A stretch of 40,041 bases of DNA from Chloroflexota bacterium. GTDB taxonomy: Bacteria > Chloroflexota > Anaerolineae > Anaerolineales > UBA11657. The notes beneath the pieces are model-generated. The model had not been told where the DNA came from and made no database searches. It saw nothing but the letters and a program-made list of their open reading frames with translations. This document shows, piece by piece, positions 1 to 31,604 of this stretch; positions within the stretch are counted from its first letter, which is position 1; the number at the start of each line of letters is the position of its first letter. The position numbers were made by a program, and so were the translations under genes. The stretch is taken from the NCBI GenBank assembly GCA_003670425.1, contig QWRL01000002.1, positions 4,955 through 44,995 of the forward strand. The letters run 5' to 3'.

Positions 1-407
1 AAGCGGCGCCAATCGCGGAGAAAACTGCTGCTTTGAATGTGCAACAGATTGCGCTGAAAGCGGCAATCGCTGCATCCGGTCCGCCGATTGTGGCGAAGGA
101 TGGGGAGATTGCATTGAAGAATGTGGAGATCGCAGCGCTTGCTCCGCTAATTGACGCGAAGAAGCAGGAGCTTGATGCCAACACTGTACTAAATGACGCT
201 GCGATGGCAGCCGTCGTGGCAGCTGTGGTGGTGCCGCATGGTGCGGCGGCGGTGCCGGACACTTGGGTGGAGCCCAACGTGCGCAAAAATGTGCTTGCCG
301 CCACCGGTGCGGCGCTGGCACTCAGCCTGATGCTTGTCTTCGGCTATGAATATGTGTGGGGCCGCGGTCTGCCGGGTGACACGGCTGTGCCCGTGCAAAT
401 GAACTAG
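1..407 (+). CDS. hypothetical protein, C-terminal fragment (5' end outside window); Ala-rich region followed by one C-terminal TM helix
   Basis: The frame of the 33..407 ORF stays open back to base 3 and ends at TAG 405-407. It has a hydrophobic segment VLAATGAALALSLMLVFGY near the C-terminus. I recognise no domain. Confidence 0.4.
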   Translation, partial: AAPIAEKTAALNVQQIALKAAIAASGPPIVAKDGEIALKNVEIAALAPLIDAKKQELDANTVLNDAAMAAVVAAVVVPHGAAAVPDTWVEPNVRKNVLAATGAALALSLMLVFGYEYVWGRGLPGDTAVPVQMN

Positions 408-490
408 CGGCTGCGCGTCGCGCCCAGCGGCCACATCCGCCGGCGGGCTTGCGCAGTCCCCGCCAGCCCCCAGTTAGGCAGCGCCGGCCT

Positions 491-2041
491 TCACCATGAG
501 ACGCGGTTTTGGTCGGACACGCATTGGCAGGCGCGCACCTCGCGCGCGGGCAGCGCAAAACTAAGGCGCCCTTTGTACGCGGTTCCATCAGACACCGCCC
601 GCCAGCCACCCAAATCAAACGCCACCGCGCTGTCAGCCGCCAGCCACTCGCCGTTGTACTTGCGTGCCACATGCACATGCGTGCCCGTGCTGCGCCCGCC
701 CTCGCAAGACGCAACGCCAAGTGCATCGCCGGCTGCCAGGCGCGTGCCCACCGCCGCAATGCTGTCTGAGCGCAGGTGGAAGTAAAAGATCACCCAGCCG
801 GTATGCTCGTTGTTGTCGCCATCGGTGTCCAGCAGCGCAGTGGCGTAGCCGTTGCGCACAATCACGCCCGGCGCCATGGCGGTAACCGGCTCGTTGGATT
901 GCCCGCAGGTGCCGGCCAGCGCCGGTGGCGCAAAATCCATGGCGGCCCACGGCAATGAGCTGCCCCACGCCGGATGCGGACCGCCGGTCAAAGACCAGAT
1001 GACGCCGGGCTTAAAGGGCAGCGTGAATGCGGGCTGGCGCAAGTTTGCCGGCTGCAGCAGCAACGCGCCAGCAAATGCATCGCCAAACAGCTGCTGGTAG
1101 GTGGCGGCAAACCCCTGCGGGCCAATGCTCTGCTCAAACTCCGCCGGCTGTTCCAGCTGGCTGAAGAGCTGCAGCAGCGCCACGGTGCCGGCGTTCTGCC
1201 ACGGGTCAATGCGCTGCACGCTGCCATCCAGCAGGCGCAGCTCCACTTGCGTGCCGGCGCGCCAGGCGTAGTAGCCGTCGTTCAATTGCGCGGCAGCCCA
1301 CTCCAGCTGGTTGGCCATGCCGGTGCGCGTGTCCGGCGGCAGGCGCAGCGGATTGCGCGCGGCACCGGCGGGCGGGTCGGCGTTGCGCAGCAGGCCGCTG
1401 CGGTATTCCAGCAGCGCCAGCAGCACGCGCGGGTTCACCGAATATTGCAGCGCCACCTCGTTTATCAAGTCCCAAGACGGGCGCGCTTCATCCCAGCTGC
1501 CATCGCGCGCGCTGTAGGCCGGCTCGTGGCGGTGCGCCACCCAGCCGTCAAAGTTTTGCAGCTGTTCAGCGAGGTTACCCGGTGCCTCGGCGTACACCAC
1601 GGCGCTGTCTGGCAGCATGTGGAAGGCGCTGCCCAGCAGCGGCGCGTAGCTGGCGGGAATGTTGATGGCGCGCCCGGGCGGCAGCGTGCTTTGAAAAACC
1701 GCCAGCGCCGGGTTGGCTTTTAGGATGGCATCCGTGGTCTGGTTGAAGCGCGCTGCCAGCGCCGGCAGTGTGTCTCCGGATTGCACCACATATGGCAGCA
1801 GCTCGCCAAACTCCCAGCGCGTGCGCACTGGCACAGCTGTGGGCAGCGCTGCCGGCGCCGCCGGCTGCAGCTCCGGCCCGGCAGCTGCCGGCGCTGCGGG
1901 CAGCGCGCTTTCAGCCGGGGGCAGCACCAGGCGCGATATCAGCGTAAGCGTCAACGCTTTTGCAGATTCAATTGTGGGCAGTGCGGCGCGTGGCGCTGCA
2001 ATCACAATTGCAACCGCTGCCAGAATGAAGACGGCCGTCAT
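491..2041 (-). CDS. LysM domain-containing M23 family metallopeptidase (membrane anchored)
   Basis: LysM-like segment YVVQSGDTLPALAARFNQTTDAILKANPAL. C-terminal M23 motifs FYFHLRSDS...GDALGVASCEGGRSTGTHVHVARKYNGEW. ATG at 2041 (verified cat at 2039-2041) precedes signal-anchor MTAVFILAAVAIVIAAP. An alternative GTG at 2101 would add a basic N-region. The track ORF extension to 2494 overlaps the upstream gene and is rejected. Confidence 0.85.
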   Translation of the reverse strand: MTAVFILAAVAIVIAAPRAALPTIESAKALTLTLISRLVLPPAESALPAAPAAAGPELQPAAPAALPTAVPVRTRWEFGELLPYVVQSGDTLPALAARFNQTTDAILKANPALAVFQSTLPPGRAINIPASYAPLLGSAFHMLPDSAVVYAEAPGNLAEQLQNFDGWVAHRHEPAYSARDGSWDEARPSWDLINEVALQYSVNPRVLLALLEYRSGLLRNADPPAGAARNPLRLPPDTRTGMANQLEWAAAQLNDGYYAWRAGTQVELRLLDGSVQRIDPWQNAGTVALLQLFSQLEQPAEFEQSIGPQGFAATYQQLFGDAFAGALLLQPANLRQPAFTLPFKPGVIWSLTGGPHPAWGSSLPWAAMDFAPPALAGTCGQSNEPVTAMAPGVIVRNGYATALLDTDGDNNEHTGWVIFYFHLRSDSIAAVGTRLAAGDALGVASCEGGRSTGTHVHVARKYNGEWLAADSAVAFDLGGWRAVSDGTAYKGRLSFALPAREVRACQCVSDQNRVSW

Positions 2042-2117
2042 CCAGCCCAGCAAGCGGCGCTGGCGCCGGCGCTGGCGCGTGATATGCGGAGAGAGTGGCA
2101 CGCCGGGCGGTGCTGCG

Positions 2118-3482
2118 TCAGGCGTCCGCGAAGCGCTGCAGCAAGTGCGCGCTGTGGCGGATGCCCTGCTGCAGCATGTCCAGGCGCACATGCTCGTTGG
2201 GTGCGTGTGCCTGCGAGCCGGGGTAGCCCGCGCCGCAGGTGACGATGGGAACTTTGAGGTGCTCGATGAATGCGTGGTTGGGGCCGGAGCCGCCGGACAT
2301 GGGCACCAGCACCGGCTCGCGCCCGTACACAACGCGCGCGGTGTCAGCTGCCATTTGCACAAACGGATGGTCGGGGTCTGTGCGCGCTGGCGGCTCGCTG
2401 CCCAGGTCTTCCACGAGCACATCGGCAAACCCCTGCGCGTCCAGATGGCTGCGCAGCTTTTGTAAAATGTCGGCCGGCGTTTGGTTGGGCACAAGCCGGA
2501 AGTCCACCTTGGCGCTGGCCTCGGCGGGCAGCACAGTCTTGGAGCCCGCGCCCTGGTAGCCGCTGTTCAACCCGCAGATGGTGCAGGTGGGCTCAAAGCT
2601 GGCCTGGCGCTCCAGCGCCACGCCGCCCGTTACGCCGCGCAAAAATTCTGTGACACCGTAGCGCTCGCGGTAACTTTGCGCGGGGTCCGGAATGTGCGCC
2701 AGCAGTTCCAAGTCGCGCGCGCTCGGCGCCTGCACCGCGTCGTAGAAGCCGGGGATCAAGATGCGCTCCATTGAATCTTTGAGGGAGTTGAGCGCCCATG
2801 TAAGGCGCCACGCTGCGTTGGGAAAGATGGAGCCGCCAAGGCCGGAGTGCACATCCTGCGTGAGGCTGCGCACGGAGAGCCCCACATAACAAATGCCGCG
2901 CAGGCCAAGGAACAAATTGGGATTGCCCAGGTGGTCCACGCCGCCAAACTCCCAGATGCAAGCATCCGCTGCAAGGCGCTGCTTGTGCGCTGCCACAAAC
3001 GGCTCAAGCCCGGTGCTGCCGGTCTCCTCCTCGCCCTCAATTACAAACTTGATGTTGCACGGGTAGGCGCCGCCGTGCAGCGCGCGCACCGCGTCCAGCG
3101 CAGCCAGGCGGCAAAGCAGGTTGCCTTTGTCATCAATGGCGCCGCGCGCATACAACGCGCCGGCGCGCACGGTGGGCTCAAATGGCGGCGAGTCCCACAG
3201 CTCCAGCGGCTCGGGCGGCTGCACATCGTAATGATTGTAAAAGAGCAGCGTGCGTGCGCTGCGCCCGCGCGCTTCGGCCACCAGCACGGGGTAGCCGCTG
3301 GTGGGCAGCAGCTCCACATCAAAGCCGCGCGCTGCCAGCAGCCCGGCCACCAGGTCGGCGCAGGCTGCCATGCCCTCGCCCGTGGCGGAGATGCTGGGCT
3401 GCGCGCACAGGCGCGCCAGCTCGGCGGTGGACTGTGCCATGTGGCTGGCAATGAAGGCGTCGAGCGCAGCCGTGGCGCTCAT
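2118..3482 (-). CDS. M20 family metallopeptidase (dipeptidase / ArgE-DapE-CPG2 family)
   Basis: Motifs NHYDVQPPEP, ARGAIDDKGN and FVIEGEEETGS are typical of M20. ATG at 3482 gives MSATAALDAF. That start overlaps the stop of the upstream small ORF as ATGA (3479-3482). Confidence 0.9.
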   Translation of the reverse strand: MSATAALDAFIASHMAQSTAELARLCAQPSISATGEGMAACADLVAGLLAARGFDVELLPTSGYPVLVAEARGRSARTLLFYNHYDVQPPEPLELWDSPPFEPTVRAGALYARGAIDDKGNLLCRLAALDAVRALHGGAYPCNIKFVIEGEEETGSTGLEPFVAAHKQRLAADACIWEFGGVDHLGNPNLFLGLRGICYVGLSVRSLTQDVHSGLGGSIFPNAAWRLTWALNSLKDSMERILIPGFYDAVQAPSARDLELLAHIPDPAQSYRERYGVTEFLRGVTGGVALERQASFEPTCTICGLNSGYQGAGSKTVLPAEASAKVDFRLVPNQTPADILQKLRSHLDAQGFADVLVEDLGSEPPARTDPDHPFVQMAADTARVVYGREPVLVPMSGGSGPNHAFIEHLKVPIVTCGAGYPGSQAHAPNEHVRLDMLQQGIRHSAHLLQRFADA

Positions 3483-8251: not shown

Positions 8252-8313
8252 CGCCGAGACCAACCACAGGTCGCCACCAGTAGGTGGCGCTGTTTAGAAA
8301 GCCAAGAGGAATC

Positions 8314-10647
8314 ATGGCCAAGAAAAAGAAGTCTCCACCGCCTGCAGCCGAGGCATCATCAGAAGACAATCTGCCGAAGAAGAAGGCGGGGCGCTTCAGC
8401 AAGCTGCGCGCAATTCTGCTCAATCGCAGTTTTCTGATTGTGACGGTTACGCTGCTGGTGCCGGTGCTGGCCGCATTGGGCGTGTTTCAATCGCTCGAGT
8501 ATTCGGTCTCCAACCAGTACTTTCAACTGCGCGGGCCGATTGCGCATTCGGAAGACATCATCATTGTTGCGATTGACGACGAATCCTTCCAGCAGACCGG
8601 GCTGCAGTGGCCGTGGCCGCGCGACTACATTGCCAAAATTGTGGCGGGGATTAGCGCCGGCAAACCCAAGGCCATCTCAATCGATGCATTCTTCTTTGAA
8701 CCCAGCAACGATAAAGCTTCCATTGAGGTCAGCGGGGCGGATGTGCAGAAGATTTCGGGCGGCACCATGACCAGCGAGCAGCTGATCGCGGCACTGTCCA
8801 CAATCGGCATGTCCGTTGAAAGCGAGGGCGGAAACTTTAAGCTGACCGTGGATGCGGGCCAGGCGCAAGACAAGGTGTTTGCGGGTGCACTTGCAGAGGC
8901 TGGCAATGTCATTCTTAACAGTGAAATCAATGTTGATAACTCAGGCGGCGCCAGCATCGAGCGCTATATCCAGCCGATTGACATTTTGAAAGACGCTGCT
9001 TATTTGACGGCGGCTGCAAACTTCACTGCTGACGCAGACGGCTTTGTGCGGCGCTTTCCAATGTTTGTGGTGAGCAAGCGTGACAAGCAGGCGCACTACA
9101 CCTGGCCGGCAATGACGGCCTTCACTTATATGGGCCAGGCGCTGCCCACGCAAATGCGTGCCACCGGCAATGTCACCATCGGCACCGGCCCGGACAAGAC
9201 GGTGGCAACGCTGCGCTCCGGCTTCTTCAACATTAATTTCCGCGGCCCGGCCAAAACCTACCGCTACATCCCGGCCTACCAAATTCCAATTGGCGACCAT
9301 CCGCCGGAAACCTTCACTGACAAGATTGTGCTGATCGGCGCCACCAGCCCGTCGCTGCAGGATATTTGGCCCACGCCCTACCTTTCGCGCACGAACTCCA
9401 CCCAGACACCGGGAGTGGAGGTCGGTGCGCATGCCATCGACACCATCCTCCACGGCGATTACATCATCACCTACCCTGTGAACATGGGTGCGCTGATTGC
9501 GTTGATTGTGGGCTTGCTGGCGGTGGCACTGACGCGCATTGAGAAGCTGGCGATTGGCCTGGCGCTGCTGGCTGTGCTGATTGTGGGCTACCTGGCCGGA
9601 AGCTATTTTCTCTTTACCCAGTTCAACACTGTGGTGGCGGTGGCCGGCCCGTTGGTGGCCATGGTGCTCTCCTACGCTGTGCCAACCGTGGAGCGCGCAG
9701 CTGCCGAGGCAAAGAAGCGCCAGGAGATCAAGGGTGCATTCTCGGCCTACCTTTCCCCGGCGATGGTGGAAATTGTGGCCAAGGATCCATCCAAGCTGCA
9801 ATTGGGCGGCGAGGAGCGCGAGATGACGATTCTGTTTTCAGACATTCGCGGCTTCAGCGGCATCTCAGAGTTGTTTGATGCGCATGGGCTGGTGGGCTAC
9901 ATCAACAAATTTTTGACGCCGATGACCAATGTGATTCAAGACCACAAGGGCACCATTGACAAATATGTGGGCGACTGCATCATGGCTTTTTGGAATGCGC
10001 CGCTGGATGATGTGGAGCATGCCACCAACGCCTGCGCCTGTGCCGTGGCGCTTAACCGGCTGCTGGCCCCGTTGAACGTAACCTTTAAGGCGGCCGCCGA
10101 TGCTGCCGGGCGCAAGCATCTGCAGCTGCGCGCCGGCATTGGCATGAACACCGGCCCTACCGTGGTGGGCAACATGGGCTCGGACACGCGCTTCAATTAC
10201 ACCGTGATGGGCGACTCCGTGAACGTGGCTTCGCGGCTGGAGTCCAGCTCCAAGCAGTACGGCATTGTGCTGGTGGTGGGCGAGACCACGCGCGCGCTGG
10301 CGCCGCAGTTTGCAGCGCTGGAGATAGACAAGGTGGTGGTGAAGGGCAAGACCGAGGCGCTGCACTCCTTTACGCTGCTGGGCGAGCCGGATATTGCCCT
10401 GACGCCCGAGTTTAAAAAACTTGAAGAAGCGCATATTGAGATGCTGCGCCTTTTTCGGTCACAGGACTGGGAGGGCGCCAACGCAAAGATTACCGAGTGC
10501 CGCGGGCTGGAGCCGGAGGGCTTGTGCGTGGAGCCGGGCGTGGGCCTCGGCAAACTCTATGACATGTATGCCGACCGCATAGTGCACTATATAGAAGAGC
10601 CGCCGGGTGCGGACTGGGACGGCAGCTACCACGCCAAGGAAAAATAA
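8314..10647 (+). CDS. CHASE2 sensor domain-containing class III adenylate/guanylate cyclase
   Basis: N-terminal TM helix, a long extracytoplasmic CHASE2-like region, and a cluster of TM helices. The C-terminal cyclase domain has MTILFSDIRGFSGISE, KYVGDCIMAFWNAP, GMNTGPTVVGNMGS and YTVMGDSVNVASRLES. ATG 8314 is preceded by aagagga (SD). The track start at 8284 is GTG without an SD. Confidence 0.9.
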   Translation: MAKKKKSPPPAAEASSEDNLPKKKAGRFSKLRAILLNRSFLIVTVTLLVPVLAALGVFQSLEYSVSNQYFQLRGPIAHSEDIIIVAIDDESFQQTGLQWPWPRDYIAKIVAGISAGKPKAISIDAFFFEPSNDKASIEVSGADVQKISGGTMTSEQLIAALSTIGMSVESEGGNFKLTVDAGQAQDKVFAGALAEAGNVILNSEINVDNSGGASIERYIQPIDILKDAAYLTAAANFTADADGFVRRFPMFVVSKRDKQAHYTWPAMTAFTYMGQALPTQMRATGNVTIGTGPDKTVATLRSGFFNINFRGPAKTYRYIPAYQIPIGDHPPETFTDKIVLIGATSPSLQDIWPTPYLSRTNSTQTPGVEVGAHAIDTILHGDYIITYPVNMGALIALIVGLLAVALTRIEKLAIGLALLAVLIVGYLAGSYFLFTQFNTVVAVAGPLVAMVLSYAVPTVERAAAEAKKRQEIKGAFSAYLSPAMVEIVAKDPSKLQLGGEEREMTILFSDIRGFSGISELFDAHGLVGYINKFLTPMTNVIQDHKGTIDKYVGDCIMAFWNAPLDDVEHATNACACAVALNRLLAPLNVTFKAAADAAGRKHLQLRAGIGMNTGPTVVGNMGSDTRFNYTVMGDSVNVASRLESSSKQYGIVLVVGETTRALAPQFAALEIDKVVVKGKTEALHSFTLLGEPDIALTPEFKKLEEAHIEMLRLFRSQDWEGANAKITECRGLEPEGLCVEPGVGLGKLYDMYADRIVHYIEEPPGADWDGSYHAKEK

Positions 10648-17865: not shown

Positions 17866-17902
17866 CCCTTGAGCTGAATTTGCGCCTCCATTGGAAGTAA
17901 TC

Positions 17903-17908
17903 TATAAT
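17903..17908 (+). promoter_or_regulatory. putative -10 box TATAAT for rpsA
   Basis: The sequence tcTATAATgt lies 36 nt upstream of ATG 17945, with aggag at 17927-17931. This makes the track TTG start at 17891 implausible. Confidence 0.45.
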
Positions 17909-17944
17909 GTTGGCGGGAAGAAACACAGGAGCACTGCAACCGTA

Positions 17945-19267
17945 ATGATAGATATTAATCCGGCTCAAAACGAGCCGGAAGACATGGATGTGACCGCTTG
18001 GCTGCCGGACGAAAAACCTGAGGACTCGCTGCCCAAACCGGGCGAAATGCGCCAGGGCCGGATTGCGCGCATCTCGCCCACCGAAATCCTGATTGAGATT
18101 GGCACCAAGAGCGAAGGCGTGCTGAGCGAGCAGGAGCTGGCATCGCTGCCGCAGGCGCAGCGCGACGCGCTGCAAGTGGGCGCCATTGTCACCGTAGAGG
18201 TGCTTGGCGAATCGGAAGACGACGATGGCCGCATCCTGGTGTCGATGGCGCGCGTGCGCGAGGTGCGCCACTGGGGCCACCTCGATGAGCTGTTCGACAA
18301 GCAGCTGGCCATCACCGGCGAGATTGTGCACTTCAACAAAGGCGGCTTGATTGTATCTGCCCCGGAGTTTGCCGGGCAGCGTGCGTTCCTGCCATCTTCG
18401 CAGGTGGGGCTGGAGCGCCATCAGCGCGCCGTTGGCAGCACTCCGGCCGAGCGCTGGGGCAGCATGACCGGCGAAACGGTTGTGGTCAAAATTTTGGAGA
18501 AACCCGATGCGGAGCGCAACCGGCTGATTGTTTCTGAGCGCTCTGCCAGCAAAGAAGCGCGGGCTGTGCGCCGCAAGCAGGCCATGGATGCAATTGCGCC
18601 CGGGCAGGTGCACACCGGCCGCGTGGTTTCCATTTCCAGCTTTGGCGCCTTTGTGGATATTGGCGGCGCGGACGGGCTGGTGCATCTCTCCGAGCTTTCG
18701 TGGCGCCACATCGACCACCCGAAGGAAGTGGTGCGCGTCGGGCAGCAGTTGCAGGTCAAGGTGCTGTCAGTGGATTTTGAGCGCCAGCGCATTGCACTCT
18801 CCAGCCGTGTGATTGAGCAAAATCCGTGGGAGGCATTCGCCTCCAAGTTTCAGGACGGGCAGCTGGTGCGTGCCACCATCACGCGCCTCACAAAGTTTGG
18901 CGCCTTTGCCACCATCTCCGCGGCGCCGGAAATTGAGGGCCTCGTGCATGTATCCGAGCTGGCAAACAATACCGTGGAACACGCCCGTGAAGTGGTATCG
19001 CAAGGCGAAGAACTGACGCTGCGCATTCTGAAGATTGAGCTTGAGCAGCAGCGCGTGCGCCTGAGCCTGCGCGAGGTGGCCTCGGCAAATTATGCCGAGC
19101 AAGACTACGCCTTCTACATGGCTGCCACGGATGCACAAGGTGCTGCACCGGAAGCCGCCGCCCCCGAAAATTCCGCCGGCGAGCCCGGTATGCCGCAAGA
19201 CGCTGCGCTGGATGAAGGTGCCAGCGGGCCGGCAGCAAGCGACTCGTCCGCTGCCGACGGAAACTAA
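17945..19267 (+). CDS. rpsA: 30S ribosomal protein S1
   Basis: Four or more S1 OB-fold repeats, e.g. GRVVSISSFGAFVDIGGADGLVHLSELSW and RATITRLTKFGAFATISAAPEIEGLVHVSEL. An acidic/Ala-rich C-terminal tail follows. Confidence 0.9.
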   Translation: MIDINPAQNEPEDMDVTAWLPDEKPEDSLPKPGEMRQGRIARISPTEILIEIGTKSEGVLSEQELASLPQAQRDALQVGAIVTVEVLGESEDDDGRILVSMARVREVRHWGHLDELFDKQLAITGEIVHFNKGGLIVSAPEFAGQRAFLPSSQVGLERHQRAVGSTPAERWGSMTGETVVVKILEKPDAERNRLIVSERSASKEARAVRRKQAMDAIAPGQVHTGRVVSISSFGAFVDIGGADGLVHLSELSWRHIDHPKEVVRVGQQLQVKVLSVDFERQRIALSSRVIEQNPWEAFASKFQDGQLVRATITRLTKFGAFATISAAPEIEGLVHVSELANNTVEHAREVVSQGEELTLRILKIELEQQRVRLSLREVASANYAEQDYAFYMAATDAQGAAPEAAAPENSAGEPGMPQDAALDEGASGPAASDSSAADGN

Positions 19268-19282
19268 GACCAGAATTGCAGT

Positions 19283-19315
19283 AAAGTGCGGCTAAAGCCG
19301 CACTTTTTATTTATT
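19283..19315 (+). terminator. intrinsic terminator after rpsA
   Basis: The stem is aaagtgcggc pairing with gccgcacttt, with loop taaa, followed by tttttatttatt. Confidence 0.85.
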
Positions 19316-19383
19316 GATGCTAATCAAAGCGGTGTTTGTGCAGATTAATGTTTTATTAGCATAACGGCGCGGCAGCTGTTGTT

Positions 19384-19392
19384 TGGTACAAT
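19384..19392 (+). promoter_or_regulatory. putative extended -10 promoter TGgTACAAT for clpC
   Basis: The sequence gtttGGTACAATtttt was read directly. It lies about 30 nt upstream of GTG 19422, which has gggagga 8 nt upstream. Confidence 0.4.
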
Positions 19393-19421
19393 TTTTGCAA
19401 GGTATCTGGGAGGACTAACCA

Positions 19422-21953
19422 GTGGCAGATAACATGGCTCGCTTTACACAACGCGCCCGCCGCGTGCTCAGCATTGCGCAGGAGCAGGCGGAGCGCATGC
19501 GCCAGAATGTGATTGGCACTGAGCATTTGCTGCTGGGCCTGATGCTGGAAGATGGCGGCGTTGCCAGCCGGGTGCTGCACGATGTGGGCATCGAAATTGA
19601 TCGCCTGCAGGAAACCGTACAGAAGCTGGGCGGCACCGGGAAAGCAGCTGCCAAAGGCAAGCTGGAGCTGGCGCCCTCCACCAAAGAAATTCTTAAATGT
19701 GCGATTGAAGAAGCGCGCCGCATGGACCACCATTACATTGGCACCGAGCATCTGATCCTCGGGCTGGTGCGGCTGGATGACAGCGTGGCAATGGAAGTGT
19801 TGAAGCAGCTGGGTTCCTCGGCGGAGCAAATCCGCCGCAGCACGCGCCGCATTCTGCAGGAGACTCCCACCCCCACAAAGGAACTGCAGCCCGCAGCGCA
19901 GCCCGCCACCAAGCGCAAATCAAAAGACAAAACCAAGACGCCGCTCTCAGACCAGCTGGCCACCGACCTGACGGCACTGGCCGAGCAGGGCAAACTGGAT
20001 CCGGTCATCGGGCGGGTTACAGAAGTGGAGCGTGTGATTCAAATTCTGGCGCGGCGCACCAAGAACAACCCGGCACTGATTGGCGAGCCGGGCGTGGGCA
20101 AGACTGCAATTGTGGAAGGCTTGGCGCAGCGCATCGTCAACAGCGATGTGCCCGAACTGCTGCTGGGCAAGCGCGTCCTGCAGCTGGATGTGGGCTCGCT
20201 GGTGGCCGGCACCATGTATCGCGGGCAGTTTGAGGAGCGCCTCAAGCGTGTGATCGACGAGGTCAAGCAGTCCGGCGCAATCTTGTTCATCGATGAAGTG
20301 CACATGCTGGTGGGCGCTGGCGCTGCGGGTTCCTCCGTGGATGCCGCCAACATCCTCAAGCCGGCGCTGGCGCGCGGCGAGATGCAGGTGATTGGCGCCA
20401 CCACGCTTGATGAGTACCGCAAGCACATTGAAAGCGATGCCGCCCTCGAGCGGCGCTTCCAGCCCATCACCGTGGACGAGCCCTCGCCGGAGGAAACCAT
20501 TGCCATCCTGCACGGCATCCGCGAGCGCTATGAGCAGCATCACAAGCTTTCCATCACCGATGAAGCTATCAACGCTGCGGTGGAGATGGCCGTGCGTTAT
20601 GTGCCCGACCGCTTTTTGCCGGACAAGGCCATCGACCTGATTGACGAGTCATCTTCGCGCGTGCGCATGTACAAGAGCCCGCGCGAGAAGCAACTGCGCC
20701 AGATGCTCTCCGAGCTGCGCCAGGCGCGCAGTGATTTGGAGCGCGCAACGCAAGAGGCGCGCAGTGCGGACGGACAGGAGCTGCGCCAGCGGGAAGAGAT
20801 GCTGGAGCAGCGCCTGGAGAAGCTGCGCGGCGGATGGGACCAGGCTGCGGCGCCCAAAGTGGTGGCGCAAGACATTGCCGAAGTGGTGTCGATGTGGACC
20901 GGCGTGCCGGCCACGCAAATTACCGAGGCCGAGTCTGAGCGCCTGCTCAAAATGGAAGACGCCATTCGCGAGCGCATCGTGGGGCAGGATGTGGCCATCA
21001 GCGCCATCTCGCGTGCCGTGCGCCGCGCGCGCGCCGGCCTCAATGATCCGCGCCGGCCGATCGGCGCCTTCATGTTCCTGGGACCCACGGGTGTGGGCAA
21101 GACGGAGCTCACCAAAGCACTTGCCAGTTTTATGTTTGGCTCGGAAGCGGCGTTGATCCAACTGGACATGTCTGAGTTTATGGAGCGCCACTCTGTGAGC
21201 CGTTTGGTGGGCGCTCCCCCCGGCTATGTGGGCTATGACGATGCCGGGCAGCTGACCGAGGGCGTGCGCCGCAAGCCCTACTCGATTGTTGTGTTTGACG
21301 AGATTGAGAAGGCGCACCCGGAAGCCCACAACATGCTGCTGCAAATTATGGAGGAGGGCCAGCTTTCCGACGCGCGCGGGCGCAAGGTGAGCTTCCGCAA
21401 TGCCATCATTGTAATGACCTCCAACATTGGCGCTGAGCTGATCAAGCGCCAGAACCTTGGCTTCCAAGGCAAGCTGGACGAGGCGCGCGAGGCACAGGAA
21501 TCCTACGACACGATGAAGAAGAAACTCACCGAGTCATTGCGGCGCGTGTTCCGCCCGGAGTTCATCAACCGCCTGGATGACACCGTGGTGTTCCGTTCGC
21601 TGGGGCAGGCTGACATCAGCAAGATTGTGGATTTGGAGCTGGCCAAAGTTGCCGGGCGCATCAAGTCCAAGGGCTTTGACCTGAAAATTTCGGATGCGGC
21701 GCGCAAGTTCATCTCCACTGAGGGATACGATGCGGAGTTTGGTGCGCGGCCGCTGCGCCGCGTGATCCACCAGCATGTGGAAGACGCCATGACGGATGCG
21801 CTGCTTTCTTCCAAGGCCGGCACTGGCCGGGCGCTTGTGGACTACGACGAGAGCACCAAGAAGATCACCGTAAAGATACGCAAGGGCCGGGCGCCTTCCG
21901 CAGGCAAGGCCGCCAAGGCCAAAGCCGAAGTGGCCGCACTGCCGGCCGCGTAA
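19422..21953 (+). CDS. clpC: ATP-dependent Clp protease ATP-binding subunit ClpC (class I Clp/Hsp100)
   Basis: The Clp N-domain repeats begin [19 protein letters not shown]. There are two AAA+ modules ([15 protein letters not shown] and [17 protein letters not shown]) and a short ClpC-type middle domain. GAR sensor-2 motif in [12 protein letters not shown]. The start is GTG 19422 (better SD spacing) or ATG 19434. Confidence 0.93.
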
Positions 21954-29260: not shown

Positions 29261-30880
29261 TTAAGCAGTGGCGGCGGGCAGCGTGCGCAGCATGTAAGTG
29301 CCGCACAACTCAAAGCCTGCGCGCCGGTAGTATTCGCGTGTGCCGATGGCGGCAATGACGGCCAGCCGCGCATAGCCGTGCGCGCTGGCGATGCGCTCGG
29401 CTGCGGCCAGCAGGCGCTTGCCCAGGCCGCTGTGCTGCGCCGTGTTGTGGCCGCCGCCGTCCGCACCCAGCGGCAGCGCCGCGCCATACACATGCACCTC
29501 GCGCACAATCGCGGCACCTTCAAGTTCGGCCAGCCCAAGCTCTGCTGCCGCCGGCAGCGACAGGCGCAGGTATCCGGCCAGCTTGTCATCGGTTGTGTTG
29601 AAAGACAGGAAGTGCTCCGTGCTTTGGGCGGCTGGATACACGAGGCTGTCCAGCGTCAAGTCGCCGGCAGCTGCGCCGTTACCGCGCACTTCGCGGCAGC
29701 GCAGGCACAGGCAGCGCTGGCCGGCTGCGCGCATTTGGCGCTGCACCACCTCGCGCAGGTTGGAGCATGTGCTGCCGGCAACAATGTTGGGCGCGGGAAT
29801 GTCACGGTATACGCGGTTGATGCGGCAGTAGCGCGGCACCAGCTGCTTGCACGCTGCCACCAGCTCCACCAGCGTTTCATCAGAGTACGGGTGGTACTCG
29901 CCGCGCTGCCAGTAAGCGTACAAGTCGGCGTTCGCCAGCAGCGAGCAAGGGTAAATTTTAATTTCATCCGGCTGCAGCGCCGGGTCGTCCCACAGTTTTT
30001 GGAAGTCTGCCAGGTCACTCTGCGGCGTGGCGCCCAGCAGGTTGGGCATCCAGTGCAGCACCACCTTGAAGCCGGCTGCGCGCAGCAGCGTCACCGCTGC
30101 GCGGGTTTGCGCCACAGTGTGGCCGCGCTGGTTCTGCTCCAGAATGTTGTCATCCAGTGACTGCGCCCCCATCTGCACCTTGGTTACGCCCAAGGCGCGC
30201 ATCCAGCGGATCTCCTCCGCGTGCACGTGGTCCGGGCGCGTCTCCACAACGAGGCCCACATTGCGATGCTGTGCAGTCTGGTTCCAGGCGTGCGCCTCAG
30301 CCAGGCAGCTGGAGTCGCGCCCGTTCATCGCATCAAAGCAGCGCTGCACAAACCATTCCTGATAATCACGCCGATAGCTGGACCACGTTCCACCCAAAAT
30401 CAGCAGCTCAATTTTGTCTGTGGCGTGGCCGTTGCCGGCAAATGCTGCAATGCGCGACGCAGTCTGGGCATAGGGGTCGAAGGCGTGCTGCTCAGCGCGC
30501 ATTGCACCGGGCTCATCCGGCAGGTAACTCTTGGGCATGCGCGCATCAGTGGGGCAGAAGATGCACTTGCCGGGGCACGGGTAGGGTTTGGTGAGCACCG
30601 TCACCGGCGCCACGCCGGAGATGGTGCGCATTGGTTTGCGCTGCAGGCACTTGAGCACGCGCGCATCCAGCGCCAGCTCGCCGGTCTTCACCAGATGCTG
30701 ATAGGTGCGCGTGAGCTCTGCCTTGGCATAGGTGCCGGAGCCGGCGCGTGGGAAGCGCTGCAAGGTTGCGCGCAGTGCTTCCGGTGTGTAGTGCCCGTCG
30801 GCGTGCAGCGCCTGCACGATGCGGCGCACGTCCGGCGCAAAGCGCTCCAGCTCAGGCGCGTCCAGTTCTTTCAGCAGCAT
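29261..30880 (-). CDS. elp3: Elp3-type tRNA wobble-uridine modification enzyme (radical SAM + GNAT acetyltransferase)
   Basis: Radical SAM cluster segment VLTKPYPCPGKCIFCPTD and the Elp3 central region QMGAQSLDDNILEQNQRGHTV. The C-terminal GNAT domain has HVYGAALPLG...QHSGLGKRLLAAAERIA...IGTREYYRRAGFELCGTYMLRTL. ATG 30880 is chosen because the longer starts (ATG 30937, TTG 30946) would overlap the divergent gene, and a -10 box sits 6 nt upstream of 30880. Confidence 0.9.
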   Translation of the reverse strand: MLLKELDAPELERFAPDVRRIVQALHADGHYTPEALRATLQRFPRAGSGTYAKAELTRTYQHLVKTGELALDARVLKCLQRKPMRTISGVAPVTVLTKPYPCPGKCIFCPTDARMPKSYLPDEPGAMRAEQHAFDPYAQTASRIAAFAGNGHATDKIELLILGGTWSSYRRDYQEWFVQRCFDAMNGRDSSCLAEAHAWNQTAQHRNVGLVVETRPDHVHAEEIRWMRALGVTKVQMGAQSLDDNILEQNQRGHTVAQTRAAVTLLRAAGFKVVLHWMPNLLGATPQSDLADFQKLWDDPALQPDEIKIYPCSLLANADLYAYWQRGEYHPYSDETLVELVAACKQLVPRYCRINRVYRDIPAPNIVAGSTCSNLREVVQRQMRAAGQRCLCLRCREVRGNGAAAGDLTLDSLVYPAAQSTEHFLSFNTTDDKLAGYLRLSLPAAAELGLAELEGAAIVREVHVYGAALPLGADGGGHNTAQHSGLGKRLLAAAERIASAHGYARLAVIAAIGTREYYRRAGFELCGTYMLRTLPAATA

Positions 30881-30886
30881 GCCGTC

Positions 30887-30894
30887 AGTATAAT
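30887..30894. promoter_or_regulatory. overlapping face-to-face -10 boxes in the 22-bp Elp3 / methyltransferase spacer
   Basis: The + strand has TATAAT at 30889-30894, 8 nt before ATG 30903. The - strand has TATACT at 30892-30887, 6 nt before ATG 30880. Both genes would be leaderless. Confidence 0.45.
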
Positions 30895-30902
30895 CCGGAA
30901 GA

Positions 30903-31604
30903 ATGCGCACTTTTGTGGCGCGCCGCTTGCTGCGCATCAACGCCAATTTTTACCGGCAGTTTGGCGCGGAGTTTGCCGCGTCGCGCAGCGCGCTGCAGCC
31001 GGGCATGCTGCGCGCGCTGCAGGCGCTGGATGGCTGCGCTGCGCTGCTGGATGTGGGCTGTGGCAACGGGCGTTTTGCCGGTGCCCTGCCGGCGCCGGTG
31101 CAATATGTGGGGGTGGACAGCAGCGCGGCATTGCTGGGCTGTGCCACGCCGCGCGCAGGTGCCCGCTTGCTGCAATTGGATCTGATGAATGCGGCGTGGG
31201 TGCTGCGCATGCGGCGGCGCTTTCCCGCAATTGTGTGCTTTGCCGTGCTGCACCATGTGCCCGGCGCGCGGCGGCGCCTGCGCCTGCTGCGCCAGCTGCG
31301 CGGATTGCTCCGGCCCGGCGGTGTCTGTGTGCTTTCAGTGTGGCAGTTTGTGCACGTGCCGCGTTTGCGCCGCAAGATTTGTGACTGGCAGCAAGCCGGC
31401 ATCACAGCCGCGCAGGTGGATGCGCATGACTATCTGCTCGACTGGCAGCGCGGCGGCAGCGGCCTGCGCTACGCCCATCAATTTAGCGTGCCGGAACTGG
31501 AGCAGCTGTGCACGCGCGCCGGCTTCGAAATCCGGCAAACCTACCGCAGCGATGGTGCCACGGGCGACATGGGCTTGTATGTAGTTTTGCGGGCGGCTGG
31601 TTAA
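30903..31604 (+). CDS. class I SAM-dependent methyltransferase, Trm9/ALKBH8-MTase-like
   Basis: By eye it is collinear with yeast Trm9. FYRQFGAEFAASRSALQPGMLRAL matches VYNKIAPHFSQTRYKPWPIVTEFL. LLDVGCGNGRF matches GIDVGCGNGKY. VGVDSSAALLGCA matches IGSDRSDGLIECA. FAVLHHVPGARRRLRLLRQLRGLLRPGGVCVLSVW matches IAVVHHWSTRERRVEVIRHVLSKLRQGGQALIYCW. DYLLDW...LRYAHQFSVPELEQLCTRAGF matches DVFVPW...RYYHLYREGELAEDCRQAG. Confidence 0.7.
   Translation: MRTFVARRLLRINANFYRQFGAEFAASRSALQPGMLRALQALDGCAALLDVGCGNGRFAGALPAPVQYVGVDSSAALLGCATPRAGARLLQLDLMNAAWVLRMRRRFPAIVCFAVLHHVPGARRRLRLLRQLRGLLRPGGVCVLSVWQFVHVPRLRRKICDWQQAGITAAQVDAHDYLLDWQRGGSGLRYAHQFSVPELEQLCTRAGFEIRQTYRSDGATGDMGLYVVLRAAG

Follow-up and report, generated by a model that had tools for sequence, protein, structure and literature searches.

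Wobble uridine (U34) of certain tRNAs carries 5-methoxycarbonylmethyluridine (mcm5U) or its 2-thiolated form (mcm5s2U) in eukaryotes, where the modification involves the Elongator complex together with the methyltransferase Trm9-Trm112 (ALKBH8-TRMT112). The same two catalytic proteins, Elp3 and a Trm9-like methyltransferase, are encoded by a pair of genes in a stretch of 40,041 nucleotides (contig QWRL01000002.1) from an uncultured Chloroflexota bacterium of freshwater lakes, referred to below as the window. The Elp3 of the window matches the yeast and mouse Elp3 chains with E-values of 1e-83 to 1e-90, and the radical-SAM (S-adenosylmethionine) and GNAT domains are common to both. In contrast to the eukaryotic system, the window pair is devoid of the Elp1, 2, 4, 5 and 6 subunits, no linked Trm112 was found, and the two genes are physically paired, in divergent orientation, in a bacterium. 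The methyltransferase further differs from eukaryotic Trm9 in that it lacks the long internal loop, carries Ala and Gly in place of Y243 and N271, and has an insertion of its own.

In archaea, Elp3 is a stand-alone protein, as in the window. The nucleoside mcm5U has been documented in Haloferax volcanii, in which the methyltransferase is HVO_1032-Trm112, and clustering of the Elp3 and Trm9 orthologues has been noted in Sulfolobus solfataricus; archaeal Trm9 works with Trm112, and its published distribution comprises the Sulfolobales and Halobacteriales only (PMC6144793, PMC5372719, PMC7663514). The S. solfataricus gene cluster comes closest to a precedent for the physical linkage described here. 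Archaeal Trm9 is likened to the window methyltransferase from published descriptions, not from sequence comparison.

The closest solved relative of the window Elp3 is that of Dehalococcoides mccartyi (DmcElp3; PDB 5l7j, 5l7l and 6ia6), which was called “a rare example of bacterial Elp3s” in 2019 (PMC6367351). DmcElp3 also has a divergent Trm9-like neighbor, as described below. In contrast to the window proteins, DmcElp3 is short (459 aa) and lacks the N-terminal extension, and its neighbor keeps the residues equivalent to Y243 and N271. Two further bacterial systems, MnmE/MnmG/MnmC (5-carboxymethylaminomethyluridine, cmnm5U, and 5-methylaminomethyluridine, mnm5U) and CmoM (the methyl ester 5-methoxycarbonylmethoxyuridine, mcmo5U), likewise act on C5 of U34. 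CmoM is, in addition, a class I methyltransferase that esterifies a wobble-uridine side-chain carboxylate, like the activity proposed here, but both systems are unrelated to the window pair in chemistry and in protein family.

The divergent gene pair and its proposed activity

The original prediction for this DNA, made from its sequence, listed a minus-strand open reading frame (ORF) of 561 aa and a plus-strand ORF of 233 aa. Both are present at the coordinates given (Table 1) and, as listed, share 44 bp at their 5' ends. The reading that we favor, to which a probability of roughly 70% is assigned, is that the two proteins act jointly on U34 to produce a mcm5-type side chain, the pair thus representing a bacterial two-gene module for wobble-uridine modification. 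The earlier proposal of a (m)cm5U34 module is supported at the sequence level, by the conserved active-site residues, by a near-full-length alignment with Trm9 and by genetic linkage.

According to this reading, Elp3 alone, without the other Elongator subunits, would use radical SAM chemistry and acetyl-CoA to install a carboxymethyl group on C5 of tRNA U34, yielding 5-carboxymethyluridine (cm5U). Such carboxymethylation by Elp3 alone is established for archaeal Elp3 and has been proposed for DmcElp3 (PMC6367351, PMC7663514). The divergently encoded Trm9-family methyltransferase would then esterify the carboxylate of cm5U, with SAM as donor, to form mcm5U. In this step, R28, H118 and R189 would position the carboxylate next to the methyl group of SAM, as proposed for Trm9. 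In the Lys, Glu and Gln tRNAs the product would possibly be mcm5s2U, if a 2-thiolase acts as well. Both genes would fire outward from the short spacer that separates them, probably as leaderless mRNAs. The substrate and product, the independence from Trm112 and the promoter logic are what we infer.

Relationship of the methyltransferase to Trm9

The motifs quoted in the original prediction are all present in the methyltransferase, namely F24-A-A-S-R28...P33, D50-VGCGNGRF, A114-VLHH118, RRRLRLLRQLRGLLRPGG...W147 and R189-Y-A-H192...EL...C...AG. Their occurrence is not due to chance, since most of them occupy columns that are invariant, or nearly so, in an alignment of 31 family members (A1).

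The activity of yeast (Sc) Trm9 requires R29, D72, H116, W145, W168, R241, Y243 and N271 (Létoquart et al. 2015, PMC4678810). These positions were located by a cross-family MAFFT alignment of the window protein, 26 other Elp3-adjacent methyltransferases, five Dehalococcoides-type neighbors and the Yarrowia (Yl) Trm9 chain. Six of the eight essential residues (R29, D72, H116, W145, W168 and R241) are kept in the window protein and are invariant in its family, and the equivalents of Sc H115 and Y242 are likewise conserved. R28, D72, H117/H118, W147, W181 and R189-Y190 of the window protein correspond to Sc R29, D72, H115/H116, W145, W168 and R241-Y242, respectively, in columns that are kept in every group of the alignment. 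In the yeast enzyme, R29 has been proposed to position the cm5U carboxylate, H116 lies beside the methyl group of SAM and is essential by mutagenesis, and W145 is essential and has been proposed to stack on U34 (PMC4678810). The relationship to Trm9 is thus discriminated outside of the Rossmann core, because the residues conserved there are those that define the Trm9 active site. Of the collinearity with Trm9 that had been claimed from inspection, the near-full-length alignment stands, while two of the eight essential residues are missing.

Whether the protein (METHYLTRANSFERASE) is Trm9-like is not settled by whole-sequence scores, which lean to Trm9. Its Pfam matches are generic only (Methyltransf_23/11/12/25). 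As a single sequence, its top PDB match by phmmer was Yarrowia Trm9 (5cm2_Z; E-value 1.9e-7, the next being 3e-6). The family profile also gave Yarrowia Trm9 as the top match (E-value 1.8e-14), over profile positions 25-222 of 242, and among the leading PDB matches the Trm9 alignment alone is near full length. No NCBIfam model came near its cut-off: CpaM reached 32 bits (cut-off 180), UbiG 29 (103), UbiE 16 (216), CmoB 15 (275) and BioC 16 (185). The E-value of the CmoB model was 0.006, and the CmoM structures (8joz and 4htf) matched the family profile with an E-value of 1e-6, aligned over the Rossmann core only. Placement in an unrelated family, the outcome that would have spoken against the original prediction, was consequently not observed. 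The AlphaFold2 (AF2) model of the methyltransferase (predicted local distance difference test score, pLDDT, 94.4) displays a Rossmann-type topology, and in a Foldseek search of this model against the PDB, Trm9 obtained the top TM-score normalised to the target (0.78). Being so common, the class I fold cannot discriminate, and the fold search was thus discarded as a classifier. Whole-sequence classification was likewise not decisive, the Pfam and NCBIfam matches being generic or sub-threshold and the PDB margins by phmmer and profile being small. The case therefore rests on the residues and the linkage, the margins between the scores being narrow and Trm9 not standing out in Foldseek.

The exact sequence of the window methyltransferase is recorded on 143 contigs. 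It is labeled “hypothetical protein” at NCBI and “TRM9” at JGI, whose pipeline, based on KEGG Orthology (KO), independently names members of both bacterial subfamilies TRM9. Given the JGI label, databases do not miss the similarity altogether. When 1.84 billion representatives were searched exhaustively with the profile, 1,653 clusters (50% identity) were retrieved at an E-value of 1e-30 or below, and 5,466 at 1e-10 or below.

Some family members have an unusual modular structure or altered conserved residues. In three of them (P0276, P0284 and P0305), an in-frame DUF559 (Vsr-like endonuclease) domain interrupts the methyltransferase midway and separates motif I from the HH region, which looks like a mobile endonuclease domain in a variable loop. 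Another member (P0292) is fused at its C-terminus to a GNAT acetyltransferase domain. The methyltransferase of locus L159 carries the substitutions H118G, W147F and H192A and is possibly a decayed copy.

Pairing of Elp3 and the methyltransferase across genomes

The pairing was analyzed in both directions. One genome per GTDB species was scanned with the methyltransferase profile, giving 80 loci, in which Elp3 was looked for by tblastn. Elp3 was located upstream within 2.4 kb in 67 of the 80 (66 on the opposite strand and one on the same strand), and the gap was smaller than 300 bp in 51 of these 67. Since three of the 13 exceptions end at a contig edge, the rate becomes 67 of the 77 loci whose upstream sequence extends to 2.2 kb or more. 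In ten methyltransferase loci with long flanks, no Elp3 was seen up to a distance of 10 kb.

Conversely, metagenome contigs were scanned with the Elp3 profile, which again provided 80 loci. A methyltransferase scoring at least 100 bits was found upstream on the opposite strand in 55 of them. Where 900 bp or more of upstream sequence were available, it was present in 52 of 65 loci, or 55 of 65 when three weaker adjacent matches are counted, and several of the loci that end early show a partial methyltransferase match at the contig edge. When every ORF of 82 loci was clustered all-against-all, no further conserved neighbor emerged.

The pairing is thus beyond chance in both directions, and the co-occurrence on which the original prediction was to be judged extends across phyla, well beyond this genome. 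Divergent adjacency, taken as the sign of functional coupling to Elp3, is observed in both of these sets and also in the Dehalococcoidia described below. Within the Chloroflexota, the pair occurs in the Anaerolineae, Caldilineae, Ardenticatenaceae, Aggregatilineales and Candidatus (Ca.) Aquidulcis. It is found in at least eight lineages of Patescibacteria (Saccharibacteria, Dojkabacteria, Pacebacteria, WWE3, Gracilibacteria, Komeilibacteria, Kuenenbacteria and Peregrinibacteria), as well as in Ca. Multivorans, Acidobacteriota, Myxococcota, Fermentibacteria and some proteobacterial metagenome-assembled genomes (MAGs). The pair is also carried by complete genomes, such as OZ241994.1, OZ241910.1 and AP024679.1.

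The sole co-directional case among the 67 is a Gracilibacteria MAG (L073), in which Elp3 (276-1979, plus strand) is followed by the methyltransferase (1990-2643, plus strand), at a stated distance of 14 bp. In locus L086, only a short methyltransferase-like fragment lies upstream of Elp3.

Additional genes are wedged between the pair in some lineages. CysH was considered as a third component and rejected, as it is located between the two genes in four Anaerolineae loci only (L006, at about 9213-9971 on the minus strand, L014, L026 and L050), in the orientation of Elp3. It is a genuine PAPS (phosphoadenylyl-sulfate) reductase, scoring 258 bits versus a cut-off of 154, and is most likely a lineage-specific insertion; a tie to sulfur supply for 2-thiolation would be speculative. 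A small membrane protein in the Aggregatilineales and a short-chain dehydrogenase/reductase (SDR) in Ca. Multivorans and Thermoanaerobaculia were also rejected as components, both being lineage-specific.

The pair of Dehalococcoides

On the D. mccartyi chromosome (CP019867.1), the gene for the crystallised 459-aa Elp3 has, 44 bp upstream and in divergent orientation, that for a 224-aa methyltransferase. The same divergent layout was observed in four of five further informative Dehalococcoidia loci (5 of 6 in all). The Dehalococcoides-type neighbor is only 25% identical to the window methyltransferase and belongs to a different subfamily, but the two subfamilies are homologous (hhalign probability 99.5%). 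It carries the motifs FRHR, ASFHH, TVWN, VPW, RYY[HRY]L and RN, which together represent the complete set of eight essential Trm9 residues. Against the PDB, its profile matched Trm9 near full length (E-value 5.3e-19) and 1ve3 over the core only (3.1e-19).

In Dehalococcoidia loci, including that of D. mccartyi, the Trm9-like gene is followed on its own strand by an ORF for a conserved zinc-ribbon protein of 70-75 aa with four cysteines (MLVKIxCPxC...YxGPYKCWKCR...; Table 1), which is absent from the window and from the Anaerolineae-type loci. It was considered as a candidate Trm112 and rejected, having no match to Pfam Trm112p or to any Trm112 chain in the PDB. This protein could be a partner of the Dehalococcoides-type methyltransferase. 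All five pair-bearing Dehalococcoidia loci also have a GNAT gene no more than about 2 kb from the methyltransferase.

The Elp3 protein

Judged from its sequence, the identity of the minus-strand protein as Elp3 is unambiguous, as originally predicted. It scores 497.3 bits against NCBIfam TIGR01211 (ELP3; cut-off 350), covering model positions 48-521 of 522, and contains the Pfam domains Radical_SAM, Radical_SAM_C and GNAT, the last matching at residues 450-549. The closest solved structure is DmcElp3 (5l7j; E-value 4e-123), to which the window protein aligns end to end in the PDB search, followed by archaeal and eukaryotic Elp3 chains. C124, C128 and C131 of the radical-SAM cluster motif are invariant in an alignment of 18 bacterial Elp3 sequences (A2) and match CPGKCIYC of DmcElp3. 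Q504, H505, G507 and G509 of the acetyl-CoA-binding motif are equally invariant, the motif aligning with AQHRGLG of DmcElp3, and the Cys-rich linker RCLCLRC is intact.

The alignment of the N-termini of the 18 bacterial homologues points to Met23 as the real start of Elp3, rather than the upstream TTG. With this start, the two genes would not overlap and would be separated by 22 bp. The N-terminal extension that follows (∼78-100 aa) is missing from the 459-aa D. mccartyi enzyme, DmcElp3-type proteins being ∼460 aa in length. The TIGR01211 match begins only at residue 94 and the PDB matches at residues 97-103. The extension is partly conserved among the 18 proteins, with the consensus RRxPK...SK..L...YR.L. 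In Elp3 of archaea and eukaryotes, a long basic N-terminus is important for the binding of tRNA (PMC6367351).

The presumption that Elp3 is rare in bacteria did not hold. The protein is abundant in uncultured bacteria, and a 2026 paper already describes it for “numerous bacteria”.

In a Caldilineales MAG, Elp3 (L001, 6336-7995, minus strand) is split between two predicted ORFs (405 and 152 aa), possibly a decayed copy. This split gene and the copies in loci L159 and L086 could be sequencing errors or pseudogenes.

Spacer and transcription

Two overlapping -10-like hexamers were read from the sequence of the spacer between the divergent start codons (Table 1), and no obvious Shine-Dalgarno sequence is present at either start. 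This arrangement suggests leaderless or near-leaderless divergent mRNAs, with binding of RNA polymerase to the overlapping boxes being possibly mutually exclusive. Counting against such a promoter, a consensus scan of positions 30600-31200 revealed no complete -35/-10 sigma-70 promoter.

Both genes are transcribed in situ, as they are covered by assembled contigs in four lake metatranscriptomes. In three of these the contigs break at the spacer, with adapter-flanked ends at 30866 and 30910 (X28) and ends at 30864/30981 (X26) and 30784/30990 (X27). One contig of the fourth (X25) spans the junction, which counts against the proposed arrangement. An X25 contig that joins position 30692 to 30984, omitting 291 bp with both start codons, is probably an assembly artefact, since only 20 nt lie on the shorter side.

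Table 1. Coordinates of the features of the elp3-methyltransferase locus and of related loci. Positions are those of the window unless a locus is named; A1, 31-member methyltransferase alignment; A2, alignment of 18 bacterial Elp3 sequences.
Feature	Coordinates	Strand	Remarks
elp3, longest ORF	29261-30946	-	561 aa, from TTG 30946
elp3, with probable start	29261-30880	-	539 aa; stand-alone long-form bacterial Elp3 (radical SAM and GNAT/KAT); ATG 30880-30878
Radical-SAM cluster motif C124-x3-C128-x2-C131	30554-30577	-	CPGKCIFC; numbering of the 561-aa ORF
GNAT acetyl-CoA-binding motif Q504-H-S-G507-L-G509	29420-29437	-	In Elp3
Elp3 N-terminal extension	30647-30880	-	∼78 aa (residues 23-100); common to long-form bacterial Elp3s
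Spacer between divergent start codons	30881-30902		22 bp; overlapping -10-like hexamers
TATAAT	30889-30894	+	8 nt before the methyltransferase ATG
TATACT	30892-30887	-	6 nt before the Elp3 ATG; overlaps TATAAT
Trm9-like class I SAM-dependent methyltransferase	30903-31604	+	233 aa; predicted tRNA cm5U34 carboxyl O-methyltransferase
R28 (ScTrm9 R29)	30984-30986	+	Invariant in A1; in all 32 Elp3-linked methyltransferases compared; YlTrm9 R40
SAM-binding motif I, D50-VGCGNG56	31050-31070	+	Invariant in A1; aligns with YlTrm9 DIGCGNG
D72 (ScTrm9 D72)	31116-31118	+	Invariant in A1; aligns with YlTrm9 D83
H117-H118 (ScTrm9 H115-H116)	31251-31256	+	In A1, H118 invariant and H117 at least 90%; aligns with YlTrm9 AVIHH
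W147 (ScTrm9 W145)	31341-31343	+	Invariant in A1; aligns with YlTrm9 W156
Subfamily-specific insertion, residues 150-176	31350-31430	+	27 residues; from A1 and the cross-family alignment
W181 (ScTrm9 W168), R189-Y190-A191-H192 (ScTrm9 R241-Y242-Y243-H244)	31443-31478	+	W181, R189, Y190 and H192 invariant in A1; aligns with YlTrm9 VPW...RYYH, W181 with Yl W179
G224 (inferred equivalent of ScTrm9 N271)	31572-31574	+	Start of the last beta-strand in the AF2 model; Asn in most related lineages (x-N-[LI]-x)
Zinc-ribbon ORF, Dehalococcoidia	L163: 4423-4650; L164: 4387-4605; L168: 3005-3217; L169: 2691-2909	-	

Alternative readings

Several observations weigh against the joint formation of mcm5U by the pair, and the first of these concern the active site. 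The essential Sc Y243 is replaced by Ala191 in the window protein and by A, V, C or I in the subfamily, and the N271 position is occupied by Gly224 in the window and in the Anaerolineales. In yeast Trm9, the mutants Y243A and N271A retain ∼10% and ∼4% of the activity, respectively (PMC4678810). Moreover, the subfamily-specific insertion carries invariant W162 and D176, and the Dehalococcoides-type neighbors and fungal Trm9 differ or are shorter in this region. Position 191 is Tyr in the Dehalococcoides-type proteins and in several proteins of the candidate phyla radiation (CPR; Patescibacteria), and Asn occurs at the N271 position in Dehalococcoides-type, CPR, Acidobacteriota, Myxococcota and Caldilineae relatives. 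The full Trm9 residue set would thus be the ancestral bacterial state, because both Tyr and Asn are found in the Dehalococcoides-type and several Patescibacteria proteins. On the evidence of the alignments, the Anaerolineae-type subfamily has diverged at two substrate-contact positions and has gained an insertion.

These differences are what would be expected if the methyltransferase were a Trm9 descendant that works with Elp3, but with a remodelled pocket in the Anaerolineae-type subfamily. Such an enzyme would accept another form of the Elp3 product (2-thiolated or amidated) or read the base differently, and the final nucleoside would not be plain mcm5U. The N271 residue reads the uracil O2/N3 in the docking model of Trm9, the face at which 2-thiolation occurs (PMC4678810), and D180, like W162 and D176, is invariant here and not found in the other subfamilies. 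On the other hand, the residues that serve the carboxylate and the SAM methyl group (R28, H117/H118 and R189) are unchanged, and the linkage to Elp3 is equally tight in the Anaerolineae-type subfamily. The equivalence of G224 to N271, furthermore, is derived from alignment and AF2 secondary structure, not from structural superposition; an earlier assignment of D217/G218 to Trm9 D270/N271 was replaced by M223/G224 after the cross-family alignment. A remodelled pocket is accordingly regarded as unlikely, though it fares best among the alternatives.

The scores form a second group of adverse observations. The runner-up of the family profile, 3sm3, follows Trm9 by a small margin (1.8e-13 versus 1.8e-14), Foldseek ranks Trm9 third, behind 3sm3 and 9icz, and for the Dehalococcoides-type protein Trm9 was seventh by phmmer and second by profile. 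It could be argued from such values that the methyltransferase acts elsewhere than on tRNA U34, i.e., on a small molecule, a protein or another RNA position, and that its adjacency to Elp3 reflects a shared promoter region or co-regulation. The fold and sequence scores are indeed alike for many unrelated methyltransferases, only generic class I Pfam models match, no curated NCBIfam cut-off is passed, and the ten amply flanked loci without Elp3 would fit such a view. Yet the pairing is kept in ∼80-87% of the loci, in at least six phyla, with all other neighbors changing; the conserved residues outside of the Rossmann fold are exactly those that define the Trm9 active site; and in the Dehalococcoidia a second subfamily has likewise become, or has remained, paired with Elp3. 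A different substrate is hence considered improbable.

Trm112 constitutes a third difficulty for joint mcm5U formation. Eukaryotic and archaeal Trm9 depend on Trm112. In the 40-kb window, where the search covered linked genes only, no Trm112-like ORF was detected, and unbiased clustering revealed no recurrent small ORF beside the pair in 82 loci. A regular expression for the Trm112 motif, which is a weak test, found nothing in the window or in the 82 loci, and no Trm112 fusion occurred among eight long family members that were checked. The published Trm112-contact residues, when mapped onto the methyltransferase, gave an ambiguous picture. The RNA evidence, in turn, consists of assembled contigs, not reads, and carry-over of DNA is possible.

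Finally, reports of an xcm5U nucleoside have come from none of these bacteria (PMC7663514). That bacterial Elp3 does not make cm5U34 at all, serving instead in protein acetylation or on another RNA, such that the pair is unrelated to wobble uridine, is very improbable: DmcElp3 activity is weak in vitro and xcm5U has been detected in no bacterium (PMC7663514), but all catalytic motifs of the window Elp3 are intact, its partner retains the Trm9 carboxylate-binding residues, and hydrolysis of acetyl-CoA by Elp3 from bacteria, archaea and eukaryotes is triggered by tRNA, but not by peptides or other types of nucleic acid (PMC6367351).

Other genes of the window

The remaining genes of the window are those of an ordinary chromosome, including PheS/PheT, S1, a ClpB/C-type ATPase, RadA, a thiolase, a thioredoxin-TPR protein, DUF711, a creatininase-family gene, GH127 and leucine-type biosynthesis genes. 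A search of the 40 kb detected no tRNA gene, mnmE/mnmG or tRNA thiolase, and the literature searched yielded nothing on mnmE/mnmG in these bacteria.

The S1-domain and ClpB/C-type ATPase genes (17891-21953) lie ∼8-11 kb from the Elp3/methyltransferase pair, and similar genes are located near the pair in a Caldilineales locus (L001, 4109-4990) and an Anaerolineales locus (L002, 12876-15347), which hints at wider synteny within the Chloroflexota. A CHASE2-adenylate/guanylate cyclase gene (8284-10647, plus strand) falls in the stretch of lowest GC content (0.57, versus ∼0.64-0.67 around it).

Implications

In the searchable literature, the 2016 DmcElp3 paper apart, no description of a bacterial Trm9 or of an Elp3 neighbor was found, in line with the original remark that the pairing is not known as a described bacterial system, the JGI label TRM9 notwithstanding. 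A 2017 review found no bacterial homologue of the Trm112-dependent methyltransferases to be detectable, and direct evidence for xcm5U derivatives in Dehalococcoides is lacking according to another (PMC7663514). Neither the conserved module of two genes nor its breadth or occurrence in D. mccartyi appears to have been described.

A broader picture may be drawn only tentatively, and we would lean against accepting it in full. The conversion of cm5U to mcm5U, possibly to mcm5s2U, might be widespread in uncultivated bacteria by means of the two-gene module, with a Trm9 that works without Trm112. In some lineages the module might replace MnmE/MnmG, and the Anaerolineae-type enzyme may make or recognise an undescribed derivative.

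If joint action of the pair on U34 is true, mcm5U-type nucleosides exist in bacteria, where they are now treated as a eukaryotic and archaeal trait, and the textbook distribution would be revised, though the chemistry is expected by analogy. The pairing offers a testable answer to the question of what follows bacterial Elp3, including that of D. mccartyi, the source of Elp3 crystal structures. A small Trm9, maybe soluble without Trm112, would aid structural work with tRNA, and a set of naturally occurring active-site variants at the positions of Y243 and N271 is provided as well. The module also bears on the spread of the Elp3/Trm9 pathway between the domains of life, and it would alter the predictions of tRNA modification for the genomes of Patescibacteria and Chloroflexota.

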